This document shows positions 1 to 36,741 of a stretch of DNA of 64,000 nucleotides, in pieces. The stretch is from an uncultured Gammaproteobacteria bacterium (GTDB lineage: Bacteria > Patescibacteriota > Microgenomatia > Levybacterales > GWA1-39-11), in the NCBI GenBank assembly GCA_964485575.1, contig CAZAJO010000008.1, forward strand, positions 921-64,920, given 5' to 3'. The notes under the pieces are model-generated. The model searched no databases and was not told where the DNA came from. It saw nothing but the letters and a program-made list of their open reading frames with translations. Each line of letters starts with the position of its first letter. Positions within the stretch are counted from its first letter, which is position 1. Position numbers and translations under genes: made by a program.

Positions 1-3000
1 CAACATTTCCATTTGTCCCAAGAGTTGAAACCTGAGTCAGGTTACTTAATAAGATTTGGCCGGATCCATTTGGCGCGATGGTAAGATTTTCATTTGTCCC
101 GGTTGTGATATCTGTTGATACTCCATTGAACGTTAGAGTACCTGTTGTCGTTATGGCACCAGAACTTACTGTTCCGATATTAGTAAGGTTACCTGATGCA
201 TCAATTCTTCTGACTCCATTTGTCTGGATATCTGTGACTCCATTTATTGAAGAGGCAGAAAGTGTTGCTGTTGTACCATTGTCAACGAGTGTAAGCAAAG
301 TATTTGGTGATCCTTCAGCATCCTTTATCGTTAAGGTTCCATTGTTCCCTAATGTTGAAAGCGTAATAGTTGGTGTCGTATTTGAAAGTGTCAGGGGTGA
401 GATGCCTGATAATGTGACAGTACCTGACGCGTCAAGCGTTGTTACCCCGCTTACAGCACCGGCATTTGTGATCCCACCATTATTGTTGTTAAATCCACCG
501 GTGATTGAAGCACCCCCTGCTGATACTGTTAGACCTCCGGTACTTACCGTCAAAAGCCCACCGATAGTTTGAGCAGTTGTAAAGTTATTATTTTGGCCTT
601 TGTACGCAACATTAGATAAGGTACCGGTTGTGTTTATATTGGCGCCATTAACCTGAAGTTGAGAGAGAGCATTAATTGTGTCTACTGAAAGTGTAGCAAC
701 TGTGCCGTTGTCAACGAGAGATAACAATGTATTTGGTGAACCGGCTGAGTCTTTTATAGTAAGGGTTCCAGCTGCATCTCCTGCGCCAACGGTAACAACT
801 GGATTCGTGTTTGAAAGGATGATTGGCGTAGCAGATGAGAACGTATTCGTGTTGGTGAACGTATTTGCCTGGTTAAGATACGCTACGTTTGTGAGAGTTC
901 CAGCAGTATTTATATTAAGTCCATTAAGCTGTATAGCGGTTATCGCATTGAGAACATCAGTCTGAACAGTACCAGAAGCTGTTATATTTGTAGCGCCAGC
1001 TATTGCACCCGTGTTAGTGATTCCACCTGTGTTGTTATTTATACCTCCTGTTATGTTGGCACCTCCCGCAGTCGCTACAAACCCATTAGCAGCAGTTATT
1101 GTTCCAGTTCCGGTTGTTACGATATTGCCTGAGGTCGTCAGATTGCCATTCTCATTTATGGCAAGAGTAGCCGAACCACTTGATTGGATCTGTAAAGCGT
1201 TTTGGATCGATGCATTCGTGTCATTAATGACAAGAGCTGCAGAGCCTGTTCCGGCGTTGGTTATTGTAAATTGTCTAGAGTTGAGGTTTGCAAGAGTAAA
1301 GTCAATGTTTCCTTCATTGTCTGTTGCTGAGATAGTGTTTCCGGCCTCATAAGCTTGTTGCAACGTAACATTGTTAACGTTTGCATTACACGAGGCAATT
1401 TGATTTGAAGCATTTCGACAAAGCCCTGAAGTCCCGTTAGTGCCTAAAGTAGGTACCTGTACAAGATTACTCAAAATTATTTCTCCTGTTCCATTTGGAG
1501 CAATTGTTAGATTCTCATTTGTTCCGGTCGTGATATCTGTACTCACGCCATTGAAGGTAAGCGTTCCGGTCGTAGTTATTGCACCAGAGGATACTGTACC
1601 GATATTAGTGAGGTTGCCTGAAGCGTCTATTCTTGTTGTACCATTTGTTTGTACATTTGATGAAGCATTGACTGTCCCTACAGTCAAAGTACCAACTGTT
1701 CCATTGTCTACTAATGTCAACAATGTATTAGGGGAACCGTTTGAATCATTAATCGTTAAAGTTCCAGCCGCGTTTCCGGCTCCCAAAGTTATAACCGGGT
1801 TAGTGTTTGAGAGAACAACCGGTGTTGCTGAAGAGAACGTATTCGTGTTTGTGAAAGTATTGGCTTGATTGAGATACGCAACGTTTGTGAGAGTTCCAGC
1901 TGTGTTGATGTTAGCCCCATTGAGTTGGATTGCAGTAATGGCATTTAGGATATCCGTTTGGGTAGTACCTGAAGCAGTTATATTAGTTGCACCGGTAATT
2001 GCACCAGTATTTGTTACTCCACCATTATTGTTATCGATTCCACCAGTAATTGAAGCCCCACCGGTTGTTACTGTTAAGGCTCCCCCAATGGTCTGACCAA
2101 CGGTGAAGTTATTGTTTTGACCCTTGTAAGCAACGTTTGTGAGCGTTCCAGTTGTATTGATATTAGTACCGTTGAACAAGAATCCGGTAACAGCATTTAC
2201 GCTTCCGGTAAGAGACAAGTTACCGACAGTACCTGCATCAGTCAATGAGAGCAGGGTATTTGCATCACCATCATTTATTGTAAGCGTGCTATCAACTCCA
2301 GCAGTTCCCAAAATTGCTGTTGGAGCGGCATTGGTAAGTGTTAACGGAGATGCTCCAGAAAGAGTGACTGTCCCTGAAGCGGTGATATTGGTCGCACCAG
2401 CAATAGCACCAGTATTTGTGATTCCACCGGTGTTATTGTTGATACCACCTGTTATGGATGCACCACCTGATGATACAGTCAAAAGGCCAGCGATTGTTTG
2501 ACCGACAGTGAAGTTATTGTTCTGACCCTTATAAGCAACATTTGAGAGGGTACCCGTTGTGTTGATATTTGTTCCGTTCAACAAGAATCCGGAAACTGCA
2601 TTTATTGTTCCTGAAAGCGATAGGTTTCCAACAGTCCCAGCATCTGTTAATGTCAGAAGAGTATTTGGTGAACCTTCAGCATCTTTTATTGTCAGTACCC
2701 CGTTGTTTCCGATTGTTGCAAGAGTAACAATCGGCGCGTTGTCAGAAAGTGTTACCGGATTTGCATTCGAGAATATATTATTTTGTGAGAAAGTATTTTG
2801 TTGATTCTGATAAGCGACGTTTGTGAGTGTACCAGCTGTATTGATATCTGTCCCGTTCAATTGTATGACAGACGTTGCATTGACTGTTGCTCCCTGAATC
2901 GTTCCTGAAGCAGTTATGTTGGTTGCACCAGTGATCGCCCCCGTGTTTGAGATACCACCAGTATTGTTATTAATTCCACCGGTTATTGATGCTCCACCTG

Positions 3001-16300: not shown

Positions 16301-19300
16301 TCCTGTTGTTAATGTCAGTCCGTTTGATGCTGTCAAAAGACCTGCAGAGGTTATTGTTCCAGTGCCGGTTGTAGAAATATTGCCACTAGTTGTTAGATTT
16401 CCAAGCTCATTGATAGTGAGTGTAGCAGATCCCGAGGACTGGATCTCAAGGGACGTATTGGTATTTGCATTGTTATCGTTAATGATAAATGCACTAGCTG
16501 TACCAAGGTTTGTTAGTGTGAGTGAAGTTGTCTGATCCTGACCCAATGTGAATGCCAAATTTCGTCCAGGAGTTGTCGTTATCGTATTTCCTGTATTATA
16601 TGCAGCTTGAAGTCCGAAAGGTGCTCCGTTACAGTACGCAAGGTTGTTACTTACGTCAAGACATAGAGTATTACCATTCTGAGTCTGTAGACCATTTATC
16701 TGTATCCTCTCAGTACCAGTAGTATTGAATACTACATTGTTCCCAGACGAAGGAGCAAAAACAGCAGCGCCTGAAGCGTTGAATGAATTACCTGTTGTTA
16801 TAAATACGTTACTGTTAAATGTTGCAGTGCCCGCAACATCAAGAGTGCTTCCAAGAGTTGTAGCACCGGTTCCGACAGTAAAGGTATTGGATCCGGTAAC
16901 TGAAGTGTTTCCATTGAGTGAAACATTACCAGTTCCTGTTGAGAATGTGCCTGTCCCTGTTTGGGAAATGTTGTTGGTAAATGTGCCGACTCCATTAACT
17001 GTTAGTGCTCCCCCGAGTGTTGTAAGCCCGGTTCCAACAGTTAAAGTGTTCGTACCTGTAACTGATGTATTACCGTTTAGAGTGATTGCGCCAGTTCCAG
17101 TTGTGAATGTGCTAGCACCTACCTGGCTTATGTTGTCATTAAATGTGGATACACCTAAGACATTCAATGTACCGTTGAATGCTGAATTTCCATTGACCGT
17201 AAAGTTACCTGCACCTGAAAGAGGGGATACCACAATATTTCCTGTCGTATTTCCACCAATTGTAAGAGTGTTGTTCTCGGTTGTCTGGATCGAGCGGGGA
17301 GCACCGGCAAGAGTTAGATCTCCAGAGAATGATGCAGTACCAGTTGTTGTTAGATTTGTGAAATTACCCGTCGATGGAGTAGTAGCACCGATGGCAGTGT
17401 TGTTTATGCCAGTAGCAGTGACGGTAAAATTACCGGATCCGATGAGTAAATTATTTCCTCCAAACTGTAGTGATGAAGCAGATAGACCAGACAAATTGAG
17501 TGCTCCTGATGTACCGGTGATATTAACAGCACCAGTCGTTACGCTGAGTCCGTTTGACGCTGTCAATAGCGCATTAGATGTTATAGTGCCTGTTCCGGTA
17601 GTTGCTATATTTCCACTCGTTGTAAGATTTCCAAGCTCGTTTATAGACAAAGTTGCAGATCCCGAAGACTGGATTTCAAGAGATGTATTAGTATTGGCAT
17701 TATTGTCATTGATGATAAATGCTGAAGCAGTACCCAGATTAGTCAGGGTAAGAGATGTTGTCTGATCTTGACCCAATGTAAATGCAAGGTCACGACCCGG
17801 AGTTGTCGTTATCGTGTTTCCGGTGTTGTATGCTGCTTGAAGTCCAAATGGAGCACCGTTACAGTATGCAAGATTATTGCTTACATCCAAACAAAGGGTG
17901 TTCCCATTCTGAGTCTGTAACCCATTGATTTGAATTCTTTCATTTGAGGATGTATTAAATACGACATTATTGCCGGTAGAAGGTGTAAATACAGCTGATC
18001 CTGAAGCATTGAATGAGTTACCAGTTGTTACAAATACGTTGCCATTAAATGTTGCTGTACTAGCAACTGTAAGCGTACTGCCCAACGTTGTCGCACCAGT
18101 TCCGACTGAGAACGTATTGCTTCCTGTGACAGATGTATTTCCATTCAAAGAAACTGTTCCAGTCCCTGTTGAGAATGTACCGGTGCCAACTTGGCTAATA
18201 TTGTTGTTGAATGTTGCAGCCCCTTGTACACTCAAAAGGCCAGTGATGTCGGTGTTACCAGCAATCTGCACAAGTCCAGTCGTATTACCACCGATAGTCA
18301 GAGTGTTAAAGTCGGTCGTCTGAATTGAGCGTGGGGCACCTGCAAGAGTCAGATTCCCAGAGAATGAGGCATTCCCCGTAGTTGTGAGTGTAGTGAAATT
18401 ACCGGTGGAAGGGGTAGTGGCTCCTATTGCAGTATTGTTGATTCCGGTCGCAGTTGTATTGAAGTTTGATGAGGTGAATGTCAGAGCATTTGCACCTGAA
18501 TCAAATGTAGACGCACCAAGTCCAGTAAGAACAATTGCGCCTGAAGAACCAGTTATGTTTACAGCTCCAGCTGTGACTGTAAGGCCATTTGAAGCAGTTA
18601 ATAATCCGTTAGATGTTATTGTTCCCCCTGAGGTTGTGAGGATATTGTCAATAGTTGAAAGAGTTCCATTCTCACTTATTGTAAGCGTAGCCGAACCACT
18701 ACTTTGAATAGACAGTGCATTTTGGATAGAAGCATTGGTGTCATTGATAACAAATGCTGCACTTCCGGTTCCGGCATTGGTGAGCAGGAACTGACGTGAT
18801 GAAAGATCAGCAAGTGTAAAGTCAATATTCCCATGAAGATCGTTAGCAACTATGGTATTTCCTGAATTGTATGCCTGCTGTAGGGTAACATTAAGAGCGT
18901 TTGATGAACAAATAGAAAGCTCGTTTGCCCCATTTCGACAAACAACTGTCGCACCAACGGTTCCTGAAAGATTTGGAATCCTTGTTATAGTATTTAGTAC
19001 TATTTGTCCCGTTCCGTCAGGTGAAAGAGTAAGATCCTCATTTGAATTGGTTGTGATATCTGTTGCAGCACCTGAGAATATGAGCCCTGTAGATCCTATC
19101 GATTTATTTGAAAGAGTCTGGGTCTGATTAGCAAAAATGAATGTGTCATCTGCAGTGAGTGCTGGAATGGTGGCAAATCTTGACGCAGAGGGAGCAAGAG
19201 ATGTGATTGTCGTAGTATTAGTCGTTCCAAGTACTACCTGGTTTGTTGTGTTTGTGAGATTTAGAGACGCAAATGTTGGCGATGATGTCGCAGCGATACT

Positions 19301-22300
19301 TTGAGGTAATGAAAGAGAAATAGTACCAGACCCATTAGCCACGAGAACTTGATTTGAAGTACCCGTAATAGTATTCAAACTAAACCCTGACCCATTCCCT
19401 ATGAGAAGAGCTCCATTTGGAGCAGCAGAACTATCCACCCCGGTTCCACCTCTCAAAGGTGCGAGTTGTTGTTCTGAGGCAAGAACACCTGATGCGTTAT
19501 TGATGACAACTCCAGCTGTTGTAAACGGAGATATGGTGACAGATGTATTTGCCGTAACTGTTGTGAATGCTGCAGTTGACGGAGTAGTGGCTCCAATAGC
19601 AGTGCTATTGATTCCAGTTGCCGTGACGTTTAAGTTTGCTGCTCCGATGAGTAAATTATTTCCCCCAAACTGTAGAGATGAGGCAGATAGACCTGAAAGA
19701 CTGAGGGCTCCTGACGTGCCTGTGATATTGACTGCCCCTGTCGTTACGGTAAATCCATTTTGTGCTGTAAGAAGTCCTGCGGATGTTATGGCACCGGTAC
19801 CAGTAGTCAGGATATTTCCGCTAGTCGAAAGGTTACCAACAGACGTTAAGTTTCCGTTCTCAGAGATAGTAAGAGTTGCGCTACCACTTGATTGAGCTTG
19901 GAATACATCCTGAAGTGAGGCATTCGTGTCGTTTATGACAAAAGCAGCTGACCCAGTCCCTGCATTTGTAAGCAAAAATTGACGGGATGAAAGGTCAGCA
20001 AGAGTAATGTCGATATTACCTTCACCATCGGTTGCGCTAATAGTGTTTCCTGCTTCGTAAGCCAGTTGGAGCGAAATATTAGCAGCATTTGCAGGACACT
20101 CAGTTATCTCGTTTGTTATATCATCACGGCACAAGGTGGTCGCGCTTAGTCCAGCAGCTGGAAGATTAAGTAGTTTGGTTATATTTGAAAGGACGATCTG
20201 ACCCGTTCCATCAGGGGTAATAGTAAGGTCTTGATTCGATACGGTTGTGATATCGGTCCCTACACCATTAAAGGTTAGTGACCCTGTCGCTGTGATTGCT
20301 CCCGTTGACAAGCTATTGCTTGTGATCGAACCAGTTGTTATAAGATTTCCATTCTCAGAAATCGTGAGCGTTGCTGAACCGCTACTTTGAATAGATAGAG
20401 CATTTTGGATAGAGGCATTCGTGTCGTTTATGACAAATGCTGCTGACCCAGTACCGGCATTGGTAAGGAGGAATTGGCGAGATGAAAGGTCAGCAAGAGT
20501 GAAATCGATATTACCTTCACCATCGGTTGCGCTTATAGTGTTTCCTGCTTCGTATGCCAGTTGAAGCGAAATATTAGCAGCATTTGCCGGACACTCAGTG
20601 ATTTCATGAGAAGAATCATCACGGCAAAGTGTTGTTCCACTTACACCTGCTAATGGTAAGTTCTCTAATCGTGCAATATTTGAAAGTACGATTTGACCGG
20701 TTCCATTAGGTGTAAGCGTAAGATCTTCGTTACTGACCGTAATCAGGTCATTTGCAGCTCCAGAGAACACGAGTCCTGATGCTCCAATAGTTTTGTTAGT
20801 CAACGTTTGCGTTTGTGCCGCAAAAATAAAGGTGTCATCAAACGTGAGCGCTGGAAGTGTTGCAATACGTGGAGCACCCGGTGCTGGAGAATTTATTGTT
20901 GTAGTGTTTATTGTTCCTAATGACAATTGGTTTGTCGTTGCAGCAAGTCCGAGATTTCCTGCATATGAAAGTGTCGCAGCGTTGTCTCCCGCATTATTCA
21001 CGAATGCCAATTGGTATGTCGGTGCAGTTGTTAAGATCTGATTTTGGAGACTGAATGTCAGGTTATTTGACGAAGCCCCATTCCAGTAGGATCCTTGTAA
21101 TGACAATAGGTTTGAATTATTCAATGTTGCTCCACTCGTTGATGTGGCAAGTCTCAAAAGAGAGAGGGTATCAACTCCTGTCTGGTCGCCGACATTAAAA
21201 GCTGTCAGAGAAGTTATCGTCGTACCATCGTCTGTAAAATTAGAATCCCCGATATTTGATCCCGTTACGGTAAACTTGGCAAGTCTATTAAGAGTTCCAG
21301 CTCCTCCGACAACTCCACCGGCTCCAGCACAGTTTCCGACAGTAAGACAGACTGTCCCGTCATAGTCTGGAATACTTATTGTCCTCAAAGTTCCAGTTGT
21401 TATTTGACTAAGATCAAATAAGAATTGCTTTGTATTATCACCGTCATCCTGGAATGTGATTGAATTATCTGTAAGTAGTTTGTTTGTTAGAGTCTGGCTT
21501 TGGTTGGCAAAGATAAATGTGTCATTTGCACTAAGTCCTGGGATCGTAGCAATCCTTGAAGCTGCTGGCGCAACCGAGGAGATAGTCGTTGTGTTCCCAG
21601 TTCCCAAAACCAATTGATTTGTTGCCGCAAGGGAAGTAAGAACTCCTGCAGTCGTTAGATTCCCGTTCTCATTAATGGTAAGAGTAGCAGAGCCACTGCT
21701 TTGAATAGATAGGGCATTTTGTACGGACGCATTTGTATCATTTATGACAAATGCAGCACTTCCTGTACCTGCGTTTGTGAGCAGGAACTGTCGTGATGAA
21801 AGATCTGCAAGAGTTAGTGAAATATCACCAAACGAGTTAGAAGCGCTGATTGTGTTTCCAGCTTCGTACGCTAGCTGAAGGGAAATGTTTGCTGCATTTG
21901 CTGGACATTCGGTGACCTGATGAGATAAATCATCGCGGCAAAGTGTCGTTGCGGCAACACCTGCGACTGGCAGGTTCTCAAGACGCGTGATATTGGAAAG
22001 AACAATCTGGCCGGTTCCATTTGGAGTAATGGTAAAGTCCTCGTTGGCAAGCGTTGAGATGTCTGTTGCAGCACCAGAGAAAACAAGACCAGTCGTACCA
22101 ATGGTCTTATTGGTGAGGGTTTGAGTTTGCTGCGCGAAAATAAATGTATCATCGACGGTAAGTGCTGGTAATGTTGCAATTCGTGGGGCAGAAGGCGCAA
22201 CCGAACTTATTGTTGTCGTGTTTCCAGATCCCAAAACCAATTGATTGGTTGCCGCTTGCGCTGTCAAAGTTGTTGCTGAAAGGATAGACCCGGTTCCGGT

Positions 22301-25300
22301 GGTTAGGATATTTCCCGACGTTGATAGGAGCCCATTTTCATTGATGGTAAGAGTTGCGCTACCACTGCTTTGGATAACGAGTGAATTATTGACAGAACCG
22401 CTCGTATCATTGATTACAAAAGCACTTGCTGTTCCGACGTTTGTTAGAAGGAGGGAAGTCGAAAGACCTGATCCTAATGTAAAGTCGATATTCCTATTTG
22501 CTGTTGTAGTTATCGTATTTCCTGAATCATAAGCAAGCTGCAATGAGACGTTGCTAGCATTTGCCGGACATTGTGTAATCTCGTTACTGACGTTATCACG
22601 ACAAAGGGTAGTTGCGGCAACTCCGGCAGCAGGAAGACTACCAAGTCTTACTGTATTCGAAAGAACAATTTGCCCAATCCCTGAAGCAGACAAAGTCAGG
22701 TCTTCATTGCTTGCGGTCGTTATGTCTGTGGCAGCACCTGAAAAGATAAGACCTGTAGATCCGATTGTCTTGTTACTTAATGTCTGCGTTTCGTTTGCAA
22801 ATACAAAAGTGTCTGACGCATTTAAAGCAGGTATCGTTGCTGTCCTTGGGACTGACTGTGAGTTGGAGTTTATAACAAGCGTATTACCGGCAGCACCTAG
22901 CGTAAGCTGATTACTTGTGTTTGAAAGTGTTTGCGATGCGAATGTCGGTGACGAAGTAGCGGCAATATCTTGAGGCGTAGAAAGAACAATTGTTCCACTA
23001 CCGTTCACAACATTTACCTGATTTGATGTACCTGAAATGTAATTAAGACTAAGTCCGGTACCATTGCCTATTAAAATCTGCCCAGGCAAAGCTGCTGATG
23101 TATCAAGGCCTGTTCCTCCTCGAGCCGGATTGAGTTGAGCGATAGTTGAGAAAACTCCCGAAGAATTATTGATTACAACTCCATCTGTTATGAAGCTTGA
23201 AAGAGTAAAAGCACCATTTGCCGACAGGTTAGTAAAAGCACCCGTTGAAGGGGTAGTACTACCCACAGCAGTACTGTTGATTCCGGTAGCTGTTGTGTTG
23301 AGGTTTGCTGATGTAATGAGTAAGTTATTTACTCCAGTTGATATACTTGAACCAGATAGGCCTGACAAATTAAGCGTACCTGCAGTAGCGGTAAGGTTAA
23401 GAGTGCCGGTTGTTAATGTAAGACCGTTTGATGCAGTAAGTGTTCCGGCTGAAGTAATAGTACCTGCTCCGGTTGTTAAGATATTTCCACTCGTTGACAA
23501 AATACCGTTCTCGTTGATGGTAAGTGTCGTTGAACCACCTGATTGCACTTCCAATGCATTCTGGATAGCAGCATTTGTATCATTGATAACAAGTGCTGAA
23601 GAGGCGGTTCCTGCATTTGTTAGGGTTAATGCACGGGCACTATCAGATGCCAACGTAAAGTCTAAGTTGCCGATAGAATCTGAAACGCTTATCGTGTTTC
23701 CGGAATTGTAAGCAAGTTGCAGTGAAATGCCACCAGCGTTTGCTGGACATTGAGTTATCTCGTTGCTGACGTTATCGCGACAAAGAGTTGTAGCACTTAC
23801 CCCAGGCCCTGGAAGATTTAAAAGACGGGTAGTGTTGGAAAGAACGATTTGCCCTGTCCCATTTGGAGTAATGGTGAAGTCTTCATTGGCAAGCGTTGAA
23901 ACATCAGTCGCTGCTCCTGAAAAGGTAAGGCCGGTCGCACCGATAGTCTTGTTGGAAAGAGTCTGTGTTTCATTGGCAAAGACAAATGTGTCATCCGCAG
24001 AAAGTGCTGGTAGTGTCGCAATTCTGGCAGCTCCCGGAGCAGGAGAGGTAATAGTTGTCGTGTTACCGGTCCCCAAGACTATCTGGTTTGTAACAGCCTG
24101 AGCAGTCAATGTTGTTGCAGAGACAATTGTGCCGGCACCAGTCGTTAGGATATTGCCGGATGTTGATAAATTATCTCCAGCAGTTGTTGGGGCGATTGTA
24201 GAGGTTCCATTGTTGCGGGTGAAAAATCCGACAGTACCCGAAGTATTGGTTGTTGTTATATTTCCAGAACATACAAGATTGCCAGTTGCGTCATCAATTG
24301 TACATCCCGTTGTGCCTGATCCCCCTGCAAGAGAAACATCCCCATCAGACGCAATTAGGAGCGCTTGCGCTCCTGTAGTGGTGTTGTATATCGTGAATTG
24401 TGACGTATCCACATTCACGGAATAATCATCCTGACCCACATCACTATCCACGAAAAATACCGAAGGATCAGAATTGGCTATAGTGATATCTCCGCCTGCT
24501 GTAGTTGTACCGGTGAGATAAAGATTTCGATAACGCCTGAGCGCAGAACCGAGATCGTAGGTATCATCAGCACTTGGTCCGATACTTCCAGCAACCTCAA
24601 GCCTAAAAGGATTACCATCAGCATCGAGGTCATCTGGTGCAACACCAATACCGAGACGGCCATTCGGAATCGTGACGAGTCCCGCTCCAATCGTCGCAGT
24701 GTCTAGGGCAGAACCGATATTGATGATATCAGCGGCAGTGTTGTCCGTTGCAATATTTATGACGTTTCCAGCCGTACCTGTGCCGACATTGATGATTTTT
24801 GCATTGTTTCCGGTGCCAAGATTGACTGTGCCGGTCGTGCCACTGTCAAGCGTCAAAGAGCTAGCTCCAGCAGAGAGCACTGACCCTGCACCTGTAAAAC
24901 TAAGGATTGTACCGCCTAGGTTAAAGTTGTTAGCAACGCCTGTTACTGATGTCAAGGTAGAAGATAATTGGATGTTGGCTTCTCCTGATGGACTTTCTGT
25001 GACATCAAAATCTCCACCAAGAAAATCCAGAGCATTTATCACATTCGAGACGACTACATCATTCTCTTTGATAGTTGCAACAGCAAAAGATGTGATATTA
25101 GTCCAAGAAGGAATGCCTGATGGGTCAACTGTTAAAAACTGTCCAGTCGTTCCGATCGGCAGCCCTGCAAGAACGTCAGTGGAAGCTGCATAGATGATGT
25201 CACCGGTCGTGTATGTAGAAAGTCCAGTTCCACCTACACCAACACTTATAAGTCCCGTCTTTATTGCTTCTCCGGCTACCGATCCTCCAGACCCAATTGT

Positions 25301-26113
25301 TAAAGTATTTGCAATATCTGGATCAGTGAGACATGAAGAACAATGTCCACGTGCAACCAAAGTTTCGAGTGTCGTTATGTCGGAAATGGTGAGATCAGTT
25401 ATCTGTATGCCATCACCCGCAAGAAGCTCTATATCACCTGTCTGACCCTGGAGTGAAGTAACCCCACTGGCATCCACAGAAATCGTGGGGGACTGTGGAT
25501 CTCCACTCAAAGTCACATTGTCACCAGCGGTTAGACTGTAGACTACATTTGGAGCTGTGATATTCCCTTTGAAAAGACTCGTACCCTCAACGAGAAGATT
25601 TTTCTTTATCGTTAGGTTCTCACGAGCAACAACCGGCAGTCCAAAAATCACACTACCGGTTAGCTTCAATTTGCTTGTTTGGGTTCCAAGTACTTCCGGT
25701 GTTTCGGTTGCGACATCTGTAGATTTAATTATTTTTGGAGCTGAATTCTTTATTAGCTGTTGCCTTGCAAAAACACCAGTAACGAAAAGTGCTGAGGCTA
25801 AAACACCGAGAACCAGGGTTTTCTTTGTTGGTTTGAGGTATGCGAATTGAAAGAATAGCCTTGTAGCCTCAAAAAGGAGGCTCATACTGTTGATAAATGA
25901 CTGAAATGGGCTTATAGTTTTATCAGCTGATGGAACAGCATCCACCTTAGCTTTGCTAGCTTCTACGAGCTTGGTAAGATCATCTTGCCTGTACTGAAAT
26001 TCTCCTTTTTCGTTGGTAAATGGGGTAAGTGAGTGGCGGTCGCAGAGATACACAAGGGTTTCTACTGAAACACCAAGCTGACGAGCTGCCTGTTTTAACG
26101 TTAATAATTTCAT
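1..26113 (-). CDS. giant N-terminally membrane-anchored repeat (beta-strand-rich, adhesin/fibre-like) protein, partial: >=8,704 codons in window, C-terminus beyond position 1
   Basis: ATG at 26113-26111; hand translation gives MKLLTLKQAARQLGVSVETLVYLCDR... Seventeen Cys-loop motifs between 1388 and 24304 all lie in the ATG frame (lowest codon coordinate = 2 mod 3). The last in-window codons (40-2: LTQVSTLGTNGNV) are in the same frame. The track lists no minus ORF starting at 26113, as expected for an ORF running off the window (ppa at the right edge is omitted the same way). Confidence 0.88.
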   Translation of the reverse strand, partial: MKLLTLKQAARQLGVSVETLVYLCDRHSLTPFTNEKGEFQYRQDDLTKLVEASKAKVDAVPSADKTISPFQSFINSMSLLFEATRLFFQFAYLKPTKKTLVLGVLASALFVTGVFARQQLIKNSAPKIIKSTDVATETPEVLGTQTSKLKLTGSVIFGLPVVARENLTIKKNLLVEGTSLFKGNITAPNVVYSLTAGDNVTLSGDPQSPTISVDASGVTSLQGQTGDIELLAGDGIQITDLTISDITTLETLVARGHCSSCLTDPDIANTLTIGSGGSVAGEAIKTGLISVGVGGTGLSTYTTGDIIYAASTDVLAGLPIGTTGQFLTVDPSGIPSWTNITSFAVATIKENDVVVSNVINALDFLGGDFDVTESPSGEANIQLSSTLTSVTGVANNFNLGGTILSFTGAGSVLSAGASSLTLDSGTTGTVNLGTGNNAKIINVGTGTAGNVINIATDNTAADIINIGSALDTATIGAGLVTIPNGRLGIGVAPDDLDADGNPFRLEVAGSIGPSADDTYDLGSALRRYRNLYLTGTTTAGGDITIANSDPSVFFVDSDVGQDDYSVNVDTSQFTIYNTTTGAQALLIASDGDVSLAGGSGTTGCTIDDATGNLVCSGNITTTNTSGTVGFFTRNNGTSTIAPTTAGDNLSTSGNILTTGAGTIVSATTLTAQAVTNQIVLGTGNTTTITSPAPGAARIATLPALSADDTFVFANETQTLSNKTIGATGLTFSGAATDVSTLANEDFTITPNGTGQIVLSNTTRLLNLPGPGVSATTLCRDNVSNEITQCPANAGGISLQLAYNSGNTISVSDSIGNLDFTLASDSARALTLTNAGTASSALVINDTNAAIQNALEVQSGGSTTLTINENGILSTSGNILTTGAGTITSAGTLTASNGLTLTTGTLNLTATAGTLNLSGLSGSSISTGVNNLLITSANLNTTATGINSTAVGSTTPSTGAFTNLSANGAFTLSSFITDGVVINNSSGVFSTIAQLNPARGGTGLDTSAALPGQILIGNGTGLSLNYISGTSNQVNVVNGSGTIVLSTPQDIAATSSPTFASQTLSNTSNQLTLGAAGNTLVINSNSQSVPRTATIPALNASDTFVFANETQTLSNKTIGSTGLIFSGAATDITTASNEDLTLSASGIGQIVLSNTVRLGSLPAAGVAATTLCRDNVSNEITQCPANASNVSLQLAYDSGNTITTTANRNIDFTLGSGLSTSLLLTNVGTASAFVINDTSGSVNNSLVIQSSGSATLTINENGLLSTSGNILTTGTGSILSATTLTAQAATNQLVLGSGNTTTISSVAPSAPRIATLPALTVDDTFIFAQQTQTLTNKTIGTTGLVFSGAATDISTLANEDFTITPNGTGQIVLSNITRLENLPVAGVAATTLCRDDLSHQVTECPANAANISLQLAYEAGNTISASNSFGDISLTLADLSSRQFLLTNAGTGSAAFVINDTNASVQNALSIQSSGSATLTINENGNLTTAGVLTSLAATNQLVLGTGNTTTISSVAPAASRIATIPGLSANDTFIFANQSQTLTNKLLTDNSITFQDDGDNTKQFLFDLSQITTGTLRTISIPDYDGTVCLTVGNCAGAGGVVGGAGTLNRLAKFTVTGSNIGDSNFTDDGTTITSLTAFNVGDQTGVDTLSLLRLATSTSGATLNNSNLLSLQGSYWNGASSNNLTFSLQNQILTTAPTYQLAFVNNAGDNAATLSYAGNLGLAATTNQLSLGTINTTTINSPAPGAPRIATLPALTFDDTFIFAAQTQTLTNKTIGASGLVFSGAANDLITVSNEDLTLTPNGTGQIVLSNIARLENLPLAGVSGTTLCRDDSSHEITECPANAANISLQLAYEAGNTISATDGEGNIDFTLADLSSRQFLLTNAGTGSAAFVINDTNASIQNALSIQSSGSATLTISENGNLITTGSITSNSLSTGAITATGSLTFNGVGTDITTVSNQDLTITPDGTGQIVLSNITKLLNLPAAGLSATTLCRDDITNEITECPANAANISLQLAYEAGNTISATDGEGNIDITLADLSSRQFLLTNAGTGSAAFVINDTNASLQDVFQAQSSGSATLTISENGNLTSVGNLSTSGNILTTGTGAITSAGLLTAQNGFTVTTGAVNITGTSGALSLSGLSASSLQFGGNNLLIGAANLNVTATGINSTAIGATTPSTAAFTTVTANTSVTISPFTTAGVVINNASGVLASEQQLAPLRGGTGVDSSAAPNGALLIGNGSGFSLNTITGTSNQVLVANGSGTISLSLPQSIAATSSPTFASLNLTNTTNQVVLGTTNTTTITSLAPSASRFATIPALTADDTFIFANQTQTLSNKSIGSTGLIFSGAATDITTNSNEDLTLSPDGTGQIVLNTITRIPNLSGTVGATVVCRNGANELSICSSNALNVTLQQAYNSGNTIVANDLHGNIDFTLADLSSRQFLLTNAGTGSAAFVINDTNASIQNALSIQSSGSATLTISENGTLSTIDNILTTSGGTITSNGLLTASNGLTVTAGAVNITGSSGAIVLTGLGASTFDSGANALTFTSSNFNTTATGINNTAIGATTPSTGNFTTLTTTGNASFSGNLTLAGAPRSIQTTDFNTLTIGGNTTGLVQIAGNTDITGLLSVQGAATFNNNISQVGTGTFSTGTGTVSLNGNTSVTGSNTFSVGTGATTLGSTLTVASTATFNGNVFVTTGNSFNASGSAVFTPSTGNNVVFNTSSNERIQINGLQTQNGNTLCLDVSNNLAYCNGAPFGLQAAYNTGNTITTTPGRDLAFTLGQDQTTSLTLTNLGTASAFIINDNNANTNTSLEIQSSGSATLSINELGNLTTSGNIATTGTGTITSNALLTASNGLSVTTGAVNITGTSGALNLSGLSASSLQFGGNNLLIGSGNFTVTATGINNTAIGATTPSTGNFTNLTTTGTASFSGDLTLAGAPRSIQTTENNTLTIGGNTTGNIVVSPLSGAGNFTVNGNSAFNGTLNVLGVSTFNDNISQVGASTFTTGTGAITLNGNTSVTGTNTLTVGTGLTTLGGALTVNGVGTFTNNISQTGTGTFSTGTGNVSLNGNTSVTGSNTFTVGTGATTLGSTLDVAGTATFNSNVFITTGNSFNASGAAVFAPSSGNNVVFNTTGTERIQINGLQTQNGNTLCLDVSNNLAYCNGAPFGLQAAYNTGNTITTTPGRNLAFTLGQDQTTSLTLTNLGTASAFIINDNNANTNTSLEIQSSGSATLTINELGNLTTSGNISTTGTGTITSAGLLTASNGLTLTTGALNLTATSGTLNLSGLSASSINTGGNNLTFTSNNFNTTATGINGTAIGVTTPSTGNFTLLTTTSNASISGNLTLAGAPRSIQTTELSALTIGGDTTGEITLSPLNGIGNLNINALTLLNGNTSVTGANTFTVGTGLTTLGGALTVNGVGTFNNNITQVGAYTFSTGTGNVSLNGNTTVTGSNTFSVGTGATTLGSTLDVAGISTFNGNVIITNGNSFDASGSAVFTPSTGNNVVFNTTSNERIQINGLQTQNGNTLCLDVSNNLAYCNGAPFGLQAAYNTGNSITTTPGRSIDFTLGQDQTTSLTLTNQGTASAFIINDNNENTNTALEIQSSGSATLTINELGNLTTSGNIATTGTGTITSAGLLTASNGLTLTTGAINLTATSGVLSLSGLSASSINAGVNNLLITSGNFTATATGINSTAIGATTPSTGAFTTLSSTGTTNLGTSGASDVNIATTGTGNVAIGNATGTFAVTSNGGLNVTTLGALTGVISLDTIGVSATDLTFAGVGTISATGSNSLTLDTGTTGDINLGIGNSAKTIYIGTGTGGNVINIATNDTLADIVNIGSLLDTINLVGSVTANNFNSSGVTVTGGTINGTSVGATVRSSGAFTTLAANSTVLIENLTTSSGTALCIDSFDNIIKCSIGSGTGTLQSSYNNGNTILTNDGRNIAFTLAPGLNLPTSFTLENQSTASAFILNDTSAGGGGTFFDLQSNGASTLKVSEAGVIYLAGDNTSDITTLVGGTDITINPASSTVDATGGNLRLVAGTSTAGGSTGGSVTINAGAGASANGSINIGTLSTGNTVNIGTDNTSPDFINIGSGTDTVNLVGAVTANNLSSSNAVITGGSIDNTPIGNTTRSSGKFTTLAANSTVTIENLVTVVGSPLCTNGDDEVVLCDVGSSAGTLQSSYDNGNTILTNSGRNIDFTLASGLNAATSLTLTNEGTASAFIINDNNAAPNQVALEIQSGGNRRLTIDESGNASTSGYISSSNSIQTIGSGTITSANGLFVTAGGASINGGINNNTGGITNTGSITGATNITASGTSQGDILNAVTSIQTNGTQRVDASGNLVNIGTIASGAITTTGTLTFSGVSTDITTVSNQDLTLLANGTGKIVLNDTVGIPILAGVQGFTVLCQNATNELSQCDPTAFGVTLQSAYNGGNTILTTAGKNIDFTLDSGLTTQLRLTNAGSANAFVINDSNVGSGGIVFEVQSASVSALTISELGTISTSGNIATTGTGTITSAGALTVSAGGASITGGINNNNGGITNTGAITGATNITASGTIQGDTINALTAFQLNGTSINVGGTLSNVAYLDQANVFTNTNTFSSAAPLTLSNSAPDITLATAGNNGVLRIRDAEGSPNTLLALTDAGTVGNLAISGTINAVSGFQLNGTNINTTGTLTNVAYKGQNNNFTVGQTIGGALTVTTGGASITGGINNNTGGITNTGAITGATNITASGTTQTDILNAITAIQLNGVNINTGGTLSNVAYLDTANTFTLGQTINTGGITVVAGGANISGGINNNNGGITNTGAIAGATTIAASGVVTLSGASPLTLSNTTPIITLGAGNAAGTLTIKDSNGTPNTLLTLVDNGTVATLTVGTINATSALQLNGANINTANTLTNVAYKNQSNTFTAGQIITTGGLAIQAGGLDVTGGINNNAGGITNAGAISGATSIDASGVVTLSNAAPLTLSDSAPVITLATAGTNGVLTIKDAEGAPNTLLTLTDTGTTGNLSVTGSINAGTGILLGGTNINTTGTLTNVAYKGQNNNFTVGQTIGGALTVTTGGASITGGINNNTGGITNTGAITGATNITASGTIQGDIINAITALQLNGTDINTAGILTNVAYKNQSNTFTAAQIISSGGLSVTGGINNNNGGITNTGAIGSATTIDASGLVTLSSSTPLALTATTSAITVAAAGSNGTLTIRDGEGSPNTLLTLTDTGTVGNLSVTGTINAVGGYLLNGTNINTTGTLTNVAYKGQNNNFTVGQTIGGALTVTTGGASITGGINNNAGGITSTGAISGVTDITASGVVTLSGASPLTLSNAAPVLTLATTGVDGVLTIADAQGSPNTLLTLTDNGTNATLAVANINATTGFLLNGTNINVGTTLSNVAYLDQANLFAIGQTINTGGITINAGGANITGGINNNTGGITNTGAITGATNITASGTIQGATINATSVFQLNGTSINTTGTLTNVAYKGQNNNFTTAQNIAGTVTITGAATDITTGSNEDLTLVANGSGVINLNDTIQIPTLASPDGSTALCRNAGDFLSACAPNSNGVTLQLAYDAGNTILTTSGRNIDFTLYDENTDSGTPTSFTLMNAGSANAFVINDVRTGSGGIAFEIQSASASALTITELGTITTSGNIATTGTGTITSAGALTVSAGGASITGGINNNTGGITNAGAISGATTIGASGLVTLSAASPLTFSNTNPIVTLGAGNANGVLTIRDSAGSPNTLLTLTDAGTVGNLSVTGTINAGTGYLLNGTNINTAGTLTNVAYLNQANIFTAGQTITTGGLAIQAGGADITGGINNNTGGITNTGAITGATNITASGTTQTDILNAITAIQLNGTNINTAGTLSNVAYKNQSNTFTAAQIISAGGLSVVGGINNNNGGIINTASISGATTIDASGVVTLSGANPLALTNGTPNISLATAGVDGVLTIKDAEGSPNTLLTLTDAGTVGNLSVTGTINAANGFLLGGTNINTTGTLSNVAYKGQDNNFTVGQTIGGALTVTTGGASITGGINNNTGGITNTGAISGATTIGASGLVTLSAGSPLTFSNTNPIVTLGAANANGTFTIKDSAGVPNTLLTLTDAGSVGNLSVTGSVNAGTTLQIGGVDINTAGTLTNVAYQNQSNTFTALQTITTGGLTISADGASITGGINNNTGGITNTGAITGATNITASGTIQGATINGTSVIQLNGVDINTAGTLTNVAYQNQANTFTALQTISSGGLTISAGGANITGGIDNNVGGITNTGAIAGATTIAASGTVTLSSGSPLTLSNTTPIITLGAGNAAGVLTIRDSNGAPNTLLTLTDNGTTATLAVANINATTAFLLNGTSINTTGTLSNVAYKGQDNNFTVGQTIGGALTVTTGGASITGGINNNAGGITNTGAITGATNITASGTIEGATLNATNNIQTNGVTRLDVIGNLTNINTISSGAITTSGVLTFNGVPTDITTGPNENLTLAPNGTGEILLNNYVQVATLSATTGLTTVCRNASNQLSTCAANASAVTLQQAYDAGNTILTTSGRNIDFTLDSGLSTQFTLTNAGSANAFVINDTNAGTGGVALDVQSAGVSKLSISELGNISTSGNITTTATGTITSAGALTVNSGGAYLKGGINNNSGGIINTGSITGITNLTASGTATLTGSSPLTLSNANPNIRLATAGTDGTLTISDAEGSPNTLLTLTDNGTVGTLSVGTVNASTGFTLGGTDINTTGTLTNVAYKGQNNNFTVGQTIGGLLTVTTGGITVSAGGASINGGINNNAGGITSTGAIAGATTIAASGTVTLSSAAPITLTNSAPDITLGAGDANGTLSIKDSAGSPNTLLTLVDNGTDATLTVGTVNALSALQINGANINTTGTLTNVAYKGQNNNFTVGQTIAGLLTVSSGGASITGGINNNTGGITNTGAITGATNITASGTIQGATLNATSVIQLAGTDINTAGTLTNVAYQNQANTFTALQTITTGGLTINAGGANITGGIANNAGGITGTGAIAGATTIDASGTVTLSSASPLTFSNTNPIVTLGAGNAAGVLTIRDSNGAPNTLLTLTDNGTTATLAVANINATTAFLLNGTSINTTGTLSNVAYKGQDNNFTVGQTIGGALTVTTGGASITGGINNNTGGITSAGAISGATTIDASGTVTLSSASPLTLSNNAPVLTLATAGNNGVFTIKDAEVSPNTLLTLTDNGTNGTLTVANVNATTALQFNGTNINTTGTLSNVAYKGQNNNFTVGQTIGGLLTVSAGGANITGGINNNAGGITNTGAVSGATNITASGTIQGGTLDATTSVQTSGTDRIDASGNLVNIGTISSGAITTTGTLTFDGVSTDITTGTNEDLTLTPNGTGQIVLSNLTQVPTLGTNGTIGLCRNALNQIATCNAATATLQTAYDNGNTITTTTGRNIAFTLAGGLGSPTSFTLTNAGTANAFILNDTAAGTGGIAINVKSNGTSTLTIDELGNLTTSGNIVTTGTGAITAAGLLSATNGASISAGLDNNLGGITNAGAITGATNITASGTIEGDIINAVSAFQLNGTSINTAGTLTNVAYKNQNNNFTVGQTIAGLLTVSTGGASITGGINNNTGGLTNAGAISGATTIAASGTVTLSGVSPLTLSNASPIVTLATQGTNGVLTIRDAELSPNNLLTLTDYGDGGSLSVSSISATTSLQLNGVDINTAGTLTNVAYRNQNNNFTVGQTIAGLLTVSSGGASITGGINNNTGGISNTGAITGATNITASGTIQGATVNATSVIQLNGTDINTAGTLTNVAYQNQQNTFSQNNIFSNANPVTLSDNAPIVTLATIGNNGVLTIKDAEGSPNTLLTLTDAGTVGNLSLSGTINAVSGFLLNGTNINTTGTLSNVAYKGQNNNFTVGQTIAGLLTVSSGGASITGGINNNTGGITNTGAIAGATNITASGTVTLSGASPLTLTNAAPTAILGTAGVDSTLTINDGDANTLLSLTDAGTVGNLSLTGSVNAVTGFLFNGTNINTTGTLTNVAYKGQNNNFTVGQTIGGALTVTTGGASITGGIDNNNGGVTNTGAITGATNITASGTTQTDILNAITAIQLNGANINTAGTLTNVAYLNQANTFTNTNTFSSATPVVLSNTNPVITLGAGNAAGTLTINDSNGSPNTLLTLVDNGTVGTLTVGTVNASSNVQTNGTTRIDASGNLTNIGTVSSGAITTTGTLTFNGVSTDITTGTNENLTIAPNGTGEIILSNLVQVPTLGTNGTSGLCRNASNQIASCNANVNNVTLQQAYEAGNTISATDNEGNIDFTLANLNSRQFTITNAGTGSAALVINDTNASIQNALQIQSSGSATLAINENGNLTTSGNIVTTGTGTITAANGFVATAGGANITGGINNNTGGITNTGAIAGATNITASGTVQTDVLNAITAIQLNGLNINTAGTLTNVAYLNQANTFTNTNTFSSATPIILSNTNPVVTVGAGDAAGTLTIKDSAGSPNTLLSLVDNGTVATLSVDTINALSQLQVNGANINTTGTLSNVAYKGQNNNFTTAQTIGGLLTVSTGGLTVSAGGASITGGFNNNNGGITNAGAVSGVTTLDASGTVTLSGISPLTLSNTTPTITLSTLGNNGTLTIKDAEGSPNTLLTLVDNGTTATLSASSINGVTDIQTNGVRRIDASGNLTNIGTVSSGAITTTGTLTFNGVSTDITTGTNENLTIAPNGSGQILLSNLTQVSTLGTNGNV
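15300..18700 (-). repeat. intragenic repeat zone 2: three tandem units of about 1.13-1.23 kb
   Basis: The anchor motif LCLDVSNNLAYCNGAPFGLQAAYNTGN (Cys pairs 17861/17891, 16631/16661, 15500/15530) gives periods of 1230 and 1131 nt (both divisible by 3). Long DNA stretches around each anchor are near-identical. Confidence 0.85.
18700..24310 (-). repeat. intragenic repeat zone 1: seven Cys-loop modules (C-x10-C x6, then C-x9-C)
   Basis: Cys pairs at 24269/24302, 23747/23780, 22568/22601, 21905/21938, 20591/20624, 20096/20129 and 18908/18938. The last six are followed by the conserved (S/T)LQxAYxxGNTI..IDFTL..SRQFLLTNAGTGSAAFVINDTNAS.QNALSIQSSGSATLTI.ENGN; the first (24269/24302) is not. 19860-20115 and 20350-20610 are highly similar at DNA level; the minimal module is about 165 aa. 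Confidence 0.8.
25766..25819 (-). other. single transmembrane signal-anchor helix of the giant protein
   Basis: aa 99-116 TLVLGVLASALFVTGVFA is preceded by KPTKK (positive-inside). This implies an N-in/C-out topology with about 8,600 aa outside. Confidence 0.6.
25955..26113 (-). other. N-terminal helix-turn-helix segment (excisionase/MerR-like, HTH_17-type) of the giant protein
   Basis: aa 1-53 MKLLTLKQAARQLGVSVETLVYLCDRHSLTPFTNEKGEFQYRQDDLTKLVEAS fits the LTxxEAAxxLGVSxxT...LxP...GxxxFxxxDL pattern of HTH_17 domains (pattern from memory, not searched). Confidence 0.55.
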
Positions 26114-26158
26114 TGACGAGTTTTGACTATCGCGTATATATAAAACGGGTGTATATCT

Positions 26159-26188
26159 AATGTATCTATTTTCGATAAAACTAGTCAA
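26159..26188 (-). promoter_or_regulatory. candidate promoter of the giant gene
   Basis: Minus strand TTGACT (26188-26183) - N18 - TACATT (26164-26159), 45 nt upstream of the ATG. No obvious SD. Confidence 0.3.
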
Positions 26189-26600
26189 CGTATGTTAATG
26201 ATAGGTACTGTAACAAACTGTACTGTTTTTCATAAAAAAATATATAACGTGTAGAAGCGGTTAAAAAGCGAAAAAAAATGATGATGCATTATGTTATAGA
26301 AAGTAGTAGTCATCCTAAACCGTATCAAATCTTAAAAAACAGAATATATTTCACAAAAACTTTTCACGCACATTAATCTTATAGTAACTATTCAGCAAAT
26401 TTTAATATTTTTATTTTCTCAAAATTGCAGAAAAAAATATTTCATTTTTCGCAAAATTAAAATTGACTTTTCACAGAATTGCGATATTTGAAGCTAATTA
26501 TTTTACGGTATTATAAATTGCTTTGATATAACAGAATAAAATGCATTATTGAGTTTATTAGTAGTACATAATGTAATTTAGCTTGGATTCAAGGCCAAAT

Positions 26601-31425: not shown

Positions 31426-31426
31426 A

Positions 31427-32161: not shown

Positions 32162-32169
32162 ATACATCC

Positions 32170-34238: not shown

Positions 34239-34257
34239 ATATCTACTATAGCAATTT

Positions 34258-35211: not shown

Positions 35212-35217
35212 ACTAAA

Positions 35218-35246
35218 AGTATAGGTAAAATTACTATGGAATACAA
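35218..35246 (-). promoter_or_regulatory. promoter candidate, leaderless geometry
   Basis: TTGTAT (35246-35241) - N17 - TATACT (35223-35218) - N6 - ATG 35211. Confidence 0.45.
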
Positions 35247-35255
35247 ACAATCAAG

Positions 35256-36708: not shown

Positions 36709-36721
36709 AATCAACTACATA
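36693..36721 (+). promoter_or_regulatory. divergent promoter candidate (NUDIX gene)
   Basis: TTGACC (36693-98) - N17 - TACATA (36716-21). This box overlaps the track start ATG 36721, which favours the start at 36742 (SD-like AAGGAAA upstream). Confidence 0.4.
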
Positions 36722-36741
36722 TGCAAAAGGAAAAATTTAAG

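Follow-up and report, generated by a model that had tools for sequence, protein, structure and literature searches.

A giant gene beside the ATP synthase locus of Levybacteria-type bacteria and the membrane-anchored surface fibre that it is predicted to encode

The left 26 kb of the DNA analysed here, a window of 64,000 nucleotides from contig CAZAJO010000008.1 (assembly GCA_964485575.1, positions 921 to 64,920), is a single genuine and conserved gene, which runs on the minus strand, encodes at least 8,704 residues and has its 3' end outside the window. The product is read as a surface fibre for contact or attachment, probably trimeric and anchored in the membrane in an N-in/C-out manner, of a Levybacteria-type bacterium within the candidate phyla radiation (CPR), and this reading is given a probability of roughly 0.6. 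New here are a phylum-wide syntenic family of proteins of at least 8,700 amino acids (aa), repeat modules without known relatives, and the combination of a MerR-type helix-turn-helix (HTH), one transmembrane helix and a predicted fibre.

A reading frame of at least 8,704 codons

The gene and its parts, all on the minus strand, are as follows.

2..26113, minus strand: giant open reading frame (ORF), complete at its 5' end and cut at its 3' end by the window edge; 8,704 codons with no stops, supported by substitution rates and by orthologues in 21 genomes
26114..26233, minus strand: conserved promoter of the giant gene, with its short leader; promoter-like site, near-invariant among relatives
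25958..26107, minus strand: winged HTH of MerR/HTH_17 type, aa 3-52, predicted cytoplasmic; Pfam scan and PDB profile search
25766..25822, minus strand: single predicted transmembrane helix (signal anchor), aa 98-116, with the basic cluster KPTKK before it; hydropathy scan
24254..25726, minus strand: conserved ectodomain next to the membrane, aa 130-620; 47-92% identity in the orthologue alignments A1 and A2, with the lowest ratio of nonsynonymous to synonymous substitution (dN/dS) in the protein, 0.028
12704..24304, minus strand: zone made up of Cys-hairpin 'C' modules together with accompanying repeats, aa ~604-4470; 13 C-x9-10-C loops
2..12703, minus strand: zone of 'F' repeats, aa ~4290/4471 to 8704; ~28 units of 85 or 137 aa

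A reading made from the letters alone (the sequence-only reading) had claimed one open minus-strand frame from the ATG at 26113 to the window edge, and translation of the reverse complement of 2..26113 bears this out, giving 8,704 codons and 0 stops under genetic code tables 1, 4, 11 and 25. The closest in-frame stop upstream is the TAA at 26195-26197. With a stop probability of 0.056 per codon at the base composition of the region, the probability of such a frame being open by chance is ~1e-216. The ORF list for positions 1-26113 holds only short shadow ORFs on the plus strand, the giant frame being hidden from it because ORFs that exceed the window go unlisted. The composition of the encoded protein (T 18.3%, G 13.4%, N 11.5%, A 10.4% and S 9.1%, with D+E+K+R at 6.2%) agrees with the earlier description of it as rich in Thr, Asn, Gly, Ser and Ala and poor in charge. 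The abundance of N-x-S/T triplets that was also claimed did not hold up as a specific enrichment, since 305 triplets are found against ~275 expected from composition.

The gene is collinear with its 92%-identical orthologue in locus L002, on the minus strand of contig CAZDED010000003.1, across ~3,600 aa, the two being separated by one indel of a ~349-aa repeat unit. Over 3,542 codons of this comparison dN/dS is 0.07, with dS at ~1.5 and so near saturation; by segment the ratio is 0.03-0.04 for aa 131-2700 and highest, 0.24-0.29, in the segment containing the HTH. The whole reading frame is thus under strong purifying selection. No exact DNA repeat of 127 nt or longer is present within 1-26113, where the longest pair is of 110 nt (4905-5014 = 7125-7234) with an offset of 2,220 nt that keeps it in frame. 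As the longest exact repeat is this short, the repeats of the giant gene are diverged and not collapsed.

A family fixed downstream of the ATP synthase genes

A profile of the conserved ectodomain recovered 21 loci among the GTDB species representatives, and in 21 of 21 the giant ORF lies directly downstream of atpH-atpA-atpG-atpD-atpC, with the same N-terminus each time. The loci were read up to a 10-kb flank or to the end of the contig, and every one of the orthologous ORFs is still open at the end of the stretch read; where 10 kb could be read they are open for at least 3,733-3,813 aa, including that of L013, which sits on the 679-kb contig CAVRKE010000002.1; L002, L005 and L009 also lie on long contigs. 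The family as defined here combines a MerR HTH, one transmembrane helix, the conserved ectodomain (A2) and an ORF of >3,700 aa downstream of atpHAGDC, and all four features are found in the window and in the 21 species representatives. Metagenome fragments from JGI with the same repeats remain open for 4,049, 4,889 and 5,297 aa, with neither end of the frame inside the fragment. An independent 3.3-kb Logan contig (87% nucleotide identity), the only match to an exact-protein look-up of atpC, contains the same junction from atpC to the giant gene. In L007, L008, L012, L013, L017, L018 and L021 an extra 1.8-2.7 kb, probably an additional gene, is found between atpC and the giant gene.

Why, then, has such a family gone almost unseen? 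In searches of 5.8 and 1.84 billion proteins only fragments were found, none of them >3,646 aa. The profile of the C module gave 194 matches in the 1.84 billion protein representatives, the longest being of 3,646 aa, and the matches to the F repeat in protein databases amount to 17 short pieces. The family is nearly invisible in protein databases because assemblies break in its repeats. On the nanopore contigs L023 (ERZ25039491 contig_38314, 1-17400) and L024 relatives of the giant gene are called as many short genes in all three frames; this splitting probably comes from indel errors and is one cause of the presence in databases as fragments only. The literature search turned up no paper on this Levybacteria protein family.

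The titles of many of the records involved, 'uncultured Gammaproteobacteria', 'Limnocylindrales', 'Eisenbacteria' and 'Sulfotelmatobacter' (L002-L007, L009, L010, L015, L018, L021; L008, L012, L020), conflict with their gene content. These records, which are bulk-submitted metagenome-assembled genomes (MAGs), are probably mislabelled, because their atp-to-giant synteny and their 60-97% identical neighbours match the loci that are titled Levy(i)bacteri(ot)a. The NCBI taxonomy places Levyibacteriota within the Microgenomates group of Patescibacteria. The suggestion of a CPR-like organism made from the letters alone is thereby borne out, with related loci titled Levy(i)bacteri(ot)a/Patescibacteria and a gene content typical of CPR bacteria that includes a type IV pilus cluster.

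The N-terminus and predicted topology

When residues 1-58 of the giant protein are scanned alone they match HTH_17 at 30.1 bits (cut-off 27) and MerR_1 at 25.2 bits (cut-off 21.6); in the Pfam scan of the whole protein the HTH scores 20.8 bits, below cut-off. MerR_1 is matched by 17 of the 18 orthologues, and a profile of the HTH searched against the PDB finds the MerR-family protein Alr3614 (8.6e-6) together with SkgA, BrlR and MtaN. The protein therefore has the N-terminal winged HTH typical of the MerR family. The dimerisation coiled coil and effector-binding domain of MerR proteins are absent, as the HTH is followed by a linker, of 45 residues in the window protein and variable among orthologues, and then by the transmembrane helix. 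Within the HTH, positions L13, S16, P31 and Y41 are invariant among orthologues and few basic residues are conserved.

A single hydrophobic helix was picked up by the hydropathy scan in each of the 21 orthologues, within aa 98-192 and with 3-6 K/R immediately ahead of it. No signal peptide is present upstream of the membrane helix, and for this reason an N-in/C-out signal anchor is the simplest topology, one that would place the HTH in the cytoplasm. The same plan appears in P0096, a complete but smaller relative of 3,646 aa, where a MerR HTH (43.4 bits) is followed by a transmembrane helix and then by C modules; P0100 and P0102 are similar by eye at their N-termini.

The ectodomain and the repeat zones

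The conserved ectodomain contains, in order, a CSSC element (258-261), the motif GGTG...GD.IYA...G.TGQ.L.V...P.W (284-337), a beta motif shared with Peptidase_S74 proteins (400-484), the element YDLGS..RYRNLYL (519-533) and the first Cys loop (604-615). Beyond it lie the C modules, in each of which a Cys-x9-10-Cys loop precedes the pattern LQxAYxxGNTI...FTL...LTNxG...INDxN...IQSxG...LxIxExG. The C zone includes three super-repeats of ~380-410 aa (Cys loops at aa 2741, 3151 and 3528), other repeat types and, at aa ~3690-3880 and ~4030-4120, the S74-shared motif twice more; in super-repeat copy number the protein differs from that of L002 by one ~349-aa unit. The F zone is built of units with the motifs GGINNNxGGITNxGAI and NVAYKGQNNNFT, the 14 long units having a mean column identity of 74%, and is interrupted by four further C modules, with Cys loops at aa 5538, 6495, 7370 and 8232. 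An 18th starts at the window edge: the final codons, which had been thought to continue a repeat motif, do so, the terminal ...TLGTNGNV being the start of this module.

The claim of 17 Cys loops running from 24304 down to 1388 is also upheld, since 17 C-x9-10-C loops occur between the same limits, from the first Cys codon at 24302-24304 to the last at 1388-1390, all in the frame of ATG 26113. The other cysteines are the pairs C258-x2-C261 and C1589-x5-C1595 and the lone Cys24, which leaves 38 of the 39 arranged in 19 close pairs. A low-confidence AlphaFold model places the Cys loop in a beta hairpin, and the loops would fit disulfide-stapled hairpins outside the cell. The earlier view of a surface protein gains support from the signal-anchor helix with no signal peptide upstream, the close pairing of the cysteines and the acidic, low-charge composition, which together suggest that the bulk of the protein is extracytoplasmic.

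Scans with Pfam, NCBIfam and PHROG models gave no credible match for the giant repeats, and searches of the PDB with the C-module and F-repeat profiles, and with the sequence of the C-terminal region of the relatives described below, gave no match. The apparent matches to DUF4251, Cu_amine_oxidN1, AnkUBD and FtsX_actino are spurious, being sums of sub-threshold stretches of which 0 are significant.

Beyond the window edge

An exact 60-mer taken from the left end of the window has no match in genome_contigs or metagenome_contigs. A metagenome contig of 1,549 nt, L026 (WBZP01129947.1), is 93% identical to the last 189 residues within the window and continues in the same frame for 326 codons further, through a complete 18th C module and more F repeats. 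Within this 18th module a single in-frame stop is found at 873-878 (SGNI*TTGTG), after which the frame is open for 224 codons; it could be a sequencing error or a true lesion in that strain.

Relatives that reach a stop codon (L031, the nanopore contig L023, and the complete smaller P0100, P0102 and P0164) have a common C-terminal plan. The F repeats of L031 are 50-64% identical to those of the giant. After the last repeats come ~1,400 aa of non-repetitive sequence that contain GNVGIGTxxP motifs, an FN3-like stretch, an ADxAEY...GRVPVxVSxxNGxIxxGD...PGxAMKAT domain, coiled-coil segments and a beta C-terminal domain. These regions are conserved among the relatives and not polymorphic, and give no match in Pfam, PHROGs or PDB sequences. 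An assignment of the 'ADxAEY' domain to the Peptidase_G2 or S74 type was considered and dropped, as Pfam and PHROGs gave no confirmation.

By extrapolation, the giant product would be of ~10,000 aa or more if it ends in the same way. The long tail fibre of phage T4 packs ~0.05-0.06 nm per residue, and by analogy 9,000-10,000 residues packed in a T4-like manner would make a fibre of ~0.5 um, longer than the cell itself.

The promoter of the giant gene

The spacer between atpC and the giant gene is of 487 nt and AT-rich. Its last 120 nt are 97-99% identical to those of L001/L002 and 87.5% to those of L003, the remainder of the spacer being 60-80% identical. Within these 120 nt are a sigma-70-like promoter (TTGACT at 26188-26183, an 18-nt spacer and TACATT at 26164-26159), a direct repeat upstream of the promoter in which ACAGTAC occurs twice (26226-26220 and 26211-26205) and a box ATACACCCGTTTTA at 26154-26141 that is kept in ten loci (L001-L006, L009, L010, L019 and L022). 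In L004-6 and L019 the ATG comes directly after CCCGTTTT, whereas the start in the clade of the window is 33 nt further downstream; as the box abuts the start codon in these four loci, a very short leader is implied. The near-invariance of the promoter block beside saturated synonymous sites means that the giant gene has its own conserved control region. No palindromic or inverted-repeat operator of the MerR style was found in the conserved promoter spacer, and the promoter is a candidate target for binding by the giant's own HTH. In the distant loci L007, L008, L012, L013, L017, L018 and L021 a different direct repeat, AGGTCYACACAGGTC-like, occurs ~100-120 nt upstream of the start of the orthologue.

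Relation to known proteins

The closest motif-level likeness is to CPR proteins annotated as 'tail fiber domain-containing' (P0027, from a MAG of Candidatus Paceibacterota; P0028; P0031), which end in Peptidase_S74 and share with the giant a block of 60-110 aa at 50-75% identity. This block, ...LDSGTTGxVNLGTGNNAKxINxGTGTAGNxINIxTDNTxADxINIGSALD, occurs in three copies in the giant, at aa 400-484, ~3690-3880 and ~4030-4120. The two groups are also alike in their Thr/Gly/Asn-rich composition and CPR origin, but the S74 proteins are of 500-1,100 aa, against >8,700 for the giant, and are without the MerR HTH, C modules and F repeats. Peptidase_S74 itself (PF13884) is not found in the 8,704 aa within the window, the C-terminus lying outside it, nor in L031 and L023, the closest relatives whose C-terminus is available; it is present in the more distant L038 and P0028.

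A second shared motif, GGTG...GDxIYA...LxxGxxGQxLxV...PxW, occurs in many uncharacterised proteins of 400-970 aa. It is also found, together with LQxAYxxGNTI, in a 1,166-aa ORF of the viral contig L071 (122 kb) that lies three genes after a baseplate-wedge gene and is a probable phage tail fibre; the matches are at ~1e-6 pairwise and not significant database-wide. The F repeats gave no match by tblastn in 50,697 phage records, and the giant has no PHROG matches apart from that of the MerR-like HTH. Across PHROGs, phage tblastn and PDB, then, the shaft shows short shared motifs and no similarity to known tail-fibre families: its likeness to tail fibres is one of style and of some motifs, and the giant fits no tail-fibre family. 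The long tail fibres of phages (T4 gp34/gp37, L071) are likewise repetitive, low-charge, beta-rich threads, and the giant may be likened to them as a long, probably trimeric fibre for reaching and binding. It differs in being chromosomal, vertically inherited, anchored in the membrane at its N-terminus and about ten times longer, and the likeness is at the level of motifs only. A trimeric organisation is hinted at only by the relatives: P0164 has a collagen-type G-X-Y run, and coiled coils (weak coiled-coil Pfam matches) are present in L031, L023 and P0100. Of the earlier description as 'beta-helix or fibre-like', the second half receives weak support from the motifs held in common with Peptidase_S74 proteins and one probable phage tail fibre and from the coiled-coil and collagen segments of the relatives, while the beta-helix is favoured neither way, the structural models being too poor.

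The predicted order of domains is that of ToxR and CadC, where a cytoplasmic HTH, of the OmpR type, is followed by one transmembrane helix and an extracytoplasmic domain. In the giant the HTH is of the MerR type, the topology is predicted, and the ectodomain extends to ~8,600 aa or more.

As a kind, giant surface proteins are already known. Those of the CPR predator Vampirococcus lugosii are of up to 4,163 aa, contain WD40, TPR, PKD or saposin domains, are membrane-associated and have been proposed to form a fibrous surface and to act in host recognition and attachment (PMC8080830). Compared by description, the Levybacteria giant is more than twice as long, has repeats without a Pfam domain and belongs to a different CPR phylum. 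Far larger are the genes of Omnitrophota, ultra-small bacteria in which proteins of 30,000-85,804 aa, with many transmembrane regions and SecA-DEAD-like and enzymatic domains, are encoded by genes that fragmented assemblies conceal; a role in contact with other cells has been proposed for them (10.1101/2023.11.21.568195). By comparison, the Levybacteria giant has one transmembrane helix, no detected SecA or enzymatic domain, and repeats of the fibre type. In Apilactobacillus kunkeei the extracellular proteins Giant1-5, of 3,000-8,000 aa, take up several per cent of a small genome and are elongated and repetitive, with N-terminal beta-solenoid binding domains like those of serine-rich-repeat proteins (PMC12863079). 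In contrast to these and to RTX adhesins, no beta-solenoid, Ig-like, RTX or LPXTG-type features were detected in the Levybacteria giant, which has an HTH and a transmembrane anchor instead. No Pfam or NCBIfam domains of the RTX/Bap/Ig-repeat adhesins (LapA, SiiE, MpIBP) are present in the 8,704 aa. With respect to trimeric autotransporters, the same 8,704 aa give no YadA-family Pfam match, the anchor is N-terminal and the C-termini of the relatives are not membrane anchors.

A proposed function and its alternatives

In the model proposed for the giant protein the membrane helix would act as an uncleaved signal anchor, with the HTH staying in the cytoplasm and the remaining ~8,590 residues being exported co-translationally via Sec. 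The conserved ectodomain (aa 130-620) would form a base that crosses the wall. Built from the Cys-hairpin modules together with the 85/137-aa repeats, the shaft would be long, tail-fibre-like and probably homotrimeric, and would measure a few hundred nm if packed as in T4. The missing C-terminus would be a non-repetitive distal region like those of L031, L023, P0100 and P0102, with the 'ADxAEY...GRVPVxV' domain, coiled coil and beta C-terminal domain. Such a fibre may serve as an adhesin that contacts or attaches to a host, a partner cell or a surface, alongside type IV pili. The cytoplasmic HTH could bind DNA or could be a mere module for cytoplasmic retention or assembly.

A number of points weigh against this model. 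The gene product is a predicted one, and its trimerisation, export and surface exposure are all inferred. The charges that flank the helix of the window protein, 3 K/R before and 4 after, give a modest positive-inside signal. The AlphaFold2 monomer models, with a predicted local distance difference test (pLDDT) score of 61 for the C module (16 internal copies) and 52 for the N-terminal ectodomain (24 sequences), are too poor for any fold. The C-terminus lies outside the window and is extrapolated from relatives of unproven orthology, and a host of the Levybacteria is not indicated by these data. The unfolded monomer models also count for a fibre, as intertwined fibres often leave AlphaFold monomer predictions unfolded.

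Could the gene be an assembly artefact, with shorter repeat genes joined or collapsed, or a decaying pseudogene whose expression is lost? The majority of public contigs end inside the giant gene, the 110-nt exact repeat pair could permit a mis-join, the 93%-identical L026 has its one in-frame stop and the relatives on nanopore contigs are split by frameshifts. Yet 26 kb are free of stops, the repeats are diverged with none exact at 127 nt or more, a mis-join at the 110-nt repeat would stay in frame anyway, collinearity with L002 extends over 3,600 aa at a dN/dS of 0.07, and independent assemblies yield ORFs open for 3,700-5,300 aa. A collapsed, chimeric or decaying gene is thus very unlikely, with the exact repeat copy number being provable by long reads only. 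An origin from a phage or mobile tail-fibre gene, or a role as the delivery fibre of a polymorphic toxin with a variable C-terminal toxin, would make sense of the motifs held in common with S74 tail-fibre-domain proteins and with a probable phage tail fibre. It too is highly improbable: no phage genes lie nearby, the flanks consisting of ATP synthase genes, PBP1, TyrRS and RecG, the synteny is fixed across 21 species, phage records give no match and PHROGs only that of the MerR-like HTH, and the C-terminal regions of the relatives are conserved and not polymorphic.

A structural component of the envelope has more in its favour. As a coat, sheath, spacer or surface layer (S-layer)-like element the protein would keep distance, provide a fuzzy coat or link sister cells, and vertical inheritance at one fixed housekeeping locus in 21 species, a dN/dS of 0.03-0.07 and a strong conserved promoter form a pattern better suited to core envelope parts than to adhesins, whose receptor binders typically evolve fast. 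However, repeat copy number varies between close relatives (the 349-aa indel relative to L002), a single anchored chain of ~9,000 aa is a costly way to make a layer, and no S-layer/SLH domains were detected in the Pfam and NCBIfam scans; this explanation is considered unlikely, though the likeliest of the alternatives. Rather less likely is a membrane-tethered contact sensor, in which the fibre would report contact or tension to a DNA-binding MerR-type HTH in the manner of ToxR/CadC or by proteolytic release. In its favour, none of the 21 orthologues lacks the HTH, smaller relatives have it too, a cytoplasmic location follows from the predicted topology, and the promoter region is near-invariant and has direct repeats; against it, the HTH comes without the dimerisation helix and effector domain of MerR proteins and conserves few basic residues, its dN/dS is the highest in the protein and no palindromic operator was found in the promoter. 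Sensing would in any case add to the fibre model and not replace it. Its boldest version is a long shot, namely that a phylum-wide, vertically inherited fibre of ~10,000 aa couples the outside of the cell to the chromosome, with the HTH acting on the invariant promoter or other DNA and the half-micrometre trimer serving as a giant ToxR/Notch-like mechanosensor, maybe tied to the ATP synthase locus via the protein encoded at 33432-34277.

The neighbourhood in the window

Upstream of the giant gene on the same strand are atpC, atpD, atpG, atpA, atpH and a b-subunit-like ORF, and further right lie genes for PBP1A, three NUDIX proteins, TyrRS, RecG, NusB, RNase III, TrmD, a type IV pilus cluster, a PMT_2/TMEM260-like glycosyltransferase and GyrB. 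The neighbourhood is free of phage and mobile-element genes, no type I secretion genes are found near the giant gene, and tRNA and Rfam scans of the window gave no matches.

The ATP synthase cluster contains delta, alpha, gamma, beta and epsilon together with, in the stretch 30925-32167 (minus strand), the b-subunit-like ORF (31427-32167), which has one transmembrane helix and a long helix and gives no Pfam match. No recognisable gene for an ATP synthase a or c subunit adjoins the cluster; a 330-aa multi-transmembrane ORF lies near it (34258-35250, minus strand) and gives no Pfam match. The 281-aa ORF at 33432-34277 (minus strand) is conserved next to the atp genes in 13 or more related loci, and in it a signal or transmembrane segment precedes an extracytoplasmic domain (aa ~50-185) that is homologous to the C-terminal 'ADxAEY...GRVPVxV...PGxAMKAT' domain of the fibre relatives (BLASTP 2e-11 to 9e-5 against P0100, L023, P0164, L031, L037 and P0102). 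Its highly conserved C-terminal hairpin is weakly like ATP synthase c subunits (PDB 2wie, E = 0.18), with no acidic residue in helix 2. This ORF is possibly a functional link between the fibre family and the ATP synthase locus.

At 47565-60804, 20 kb from the giant gene, lies a complete cluster for type IV pili, the other apparatus by which CPR bacteria classically make contact.

47565-48590: PilM
48587-52717 and 55444-56010: PilX-like protein and pseudopilins with N_methyl motifs
52594-53355: prepilin peptidase PilD
56782-58527: PilB
58530-59597: PilT
59602-60804: PilC

Inside this cluster is a PMT_2/TMEM260-like gene of the protein O-mannosyltransferase type (53369-55393, minus strand), and in L023 a PMT_2 gene (19320-21005) lies just downstream of the giant-fibre relative; surface proteins rich in Thr/Ser are possible substrates for glycosylation by the PMT_2 product. 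The pseudopilin genes enclose a gene (51664-52029, minus strand) for a 23S rRNA intervening-sequence protein (PF05635). Elsewhere, the three NUDIX hydrolase genes flank the gene for a class A penicillin-binding protein (36721-37622, plus strand; 40005-40478, minus strand; 37612-39975, minus strand), and a stand-alone response-regulator receiver domain of 123 aa with no output domain (35292-35663, plus strand) converges on a GH130 mannoside phosphorylase gene (35660-36673, minus strand), which recurs in the conserved neighbourhood of several related loci.

Significance

CPR bacteria presumably live attached to other cells and, to our knowledge, the molecules through which they make contact are, apart from type IV pili, largely unknown. 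The giant gene takes up ~3% of a genome that we take to be of ~1 Mb. The fusion through the membrane of a MerR-type HTH to what is predicted to be a giant extracellular fibre is an unusual architecture that is open to experiment, and the family offers a concrete candidate, common to the clade, for the apparatus by which a whole CPR phylum makes contact with other cells.

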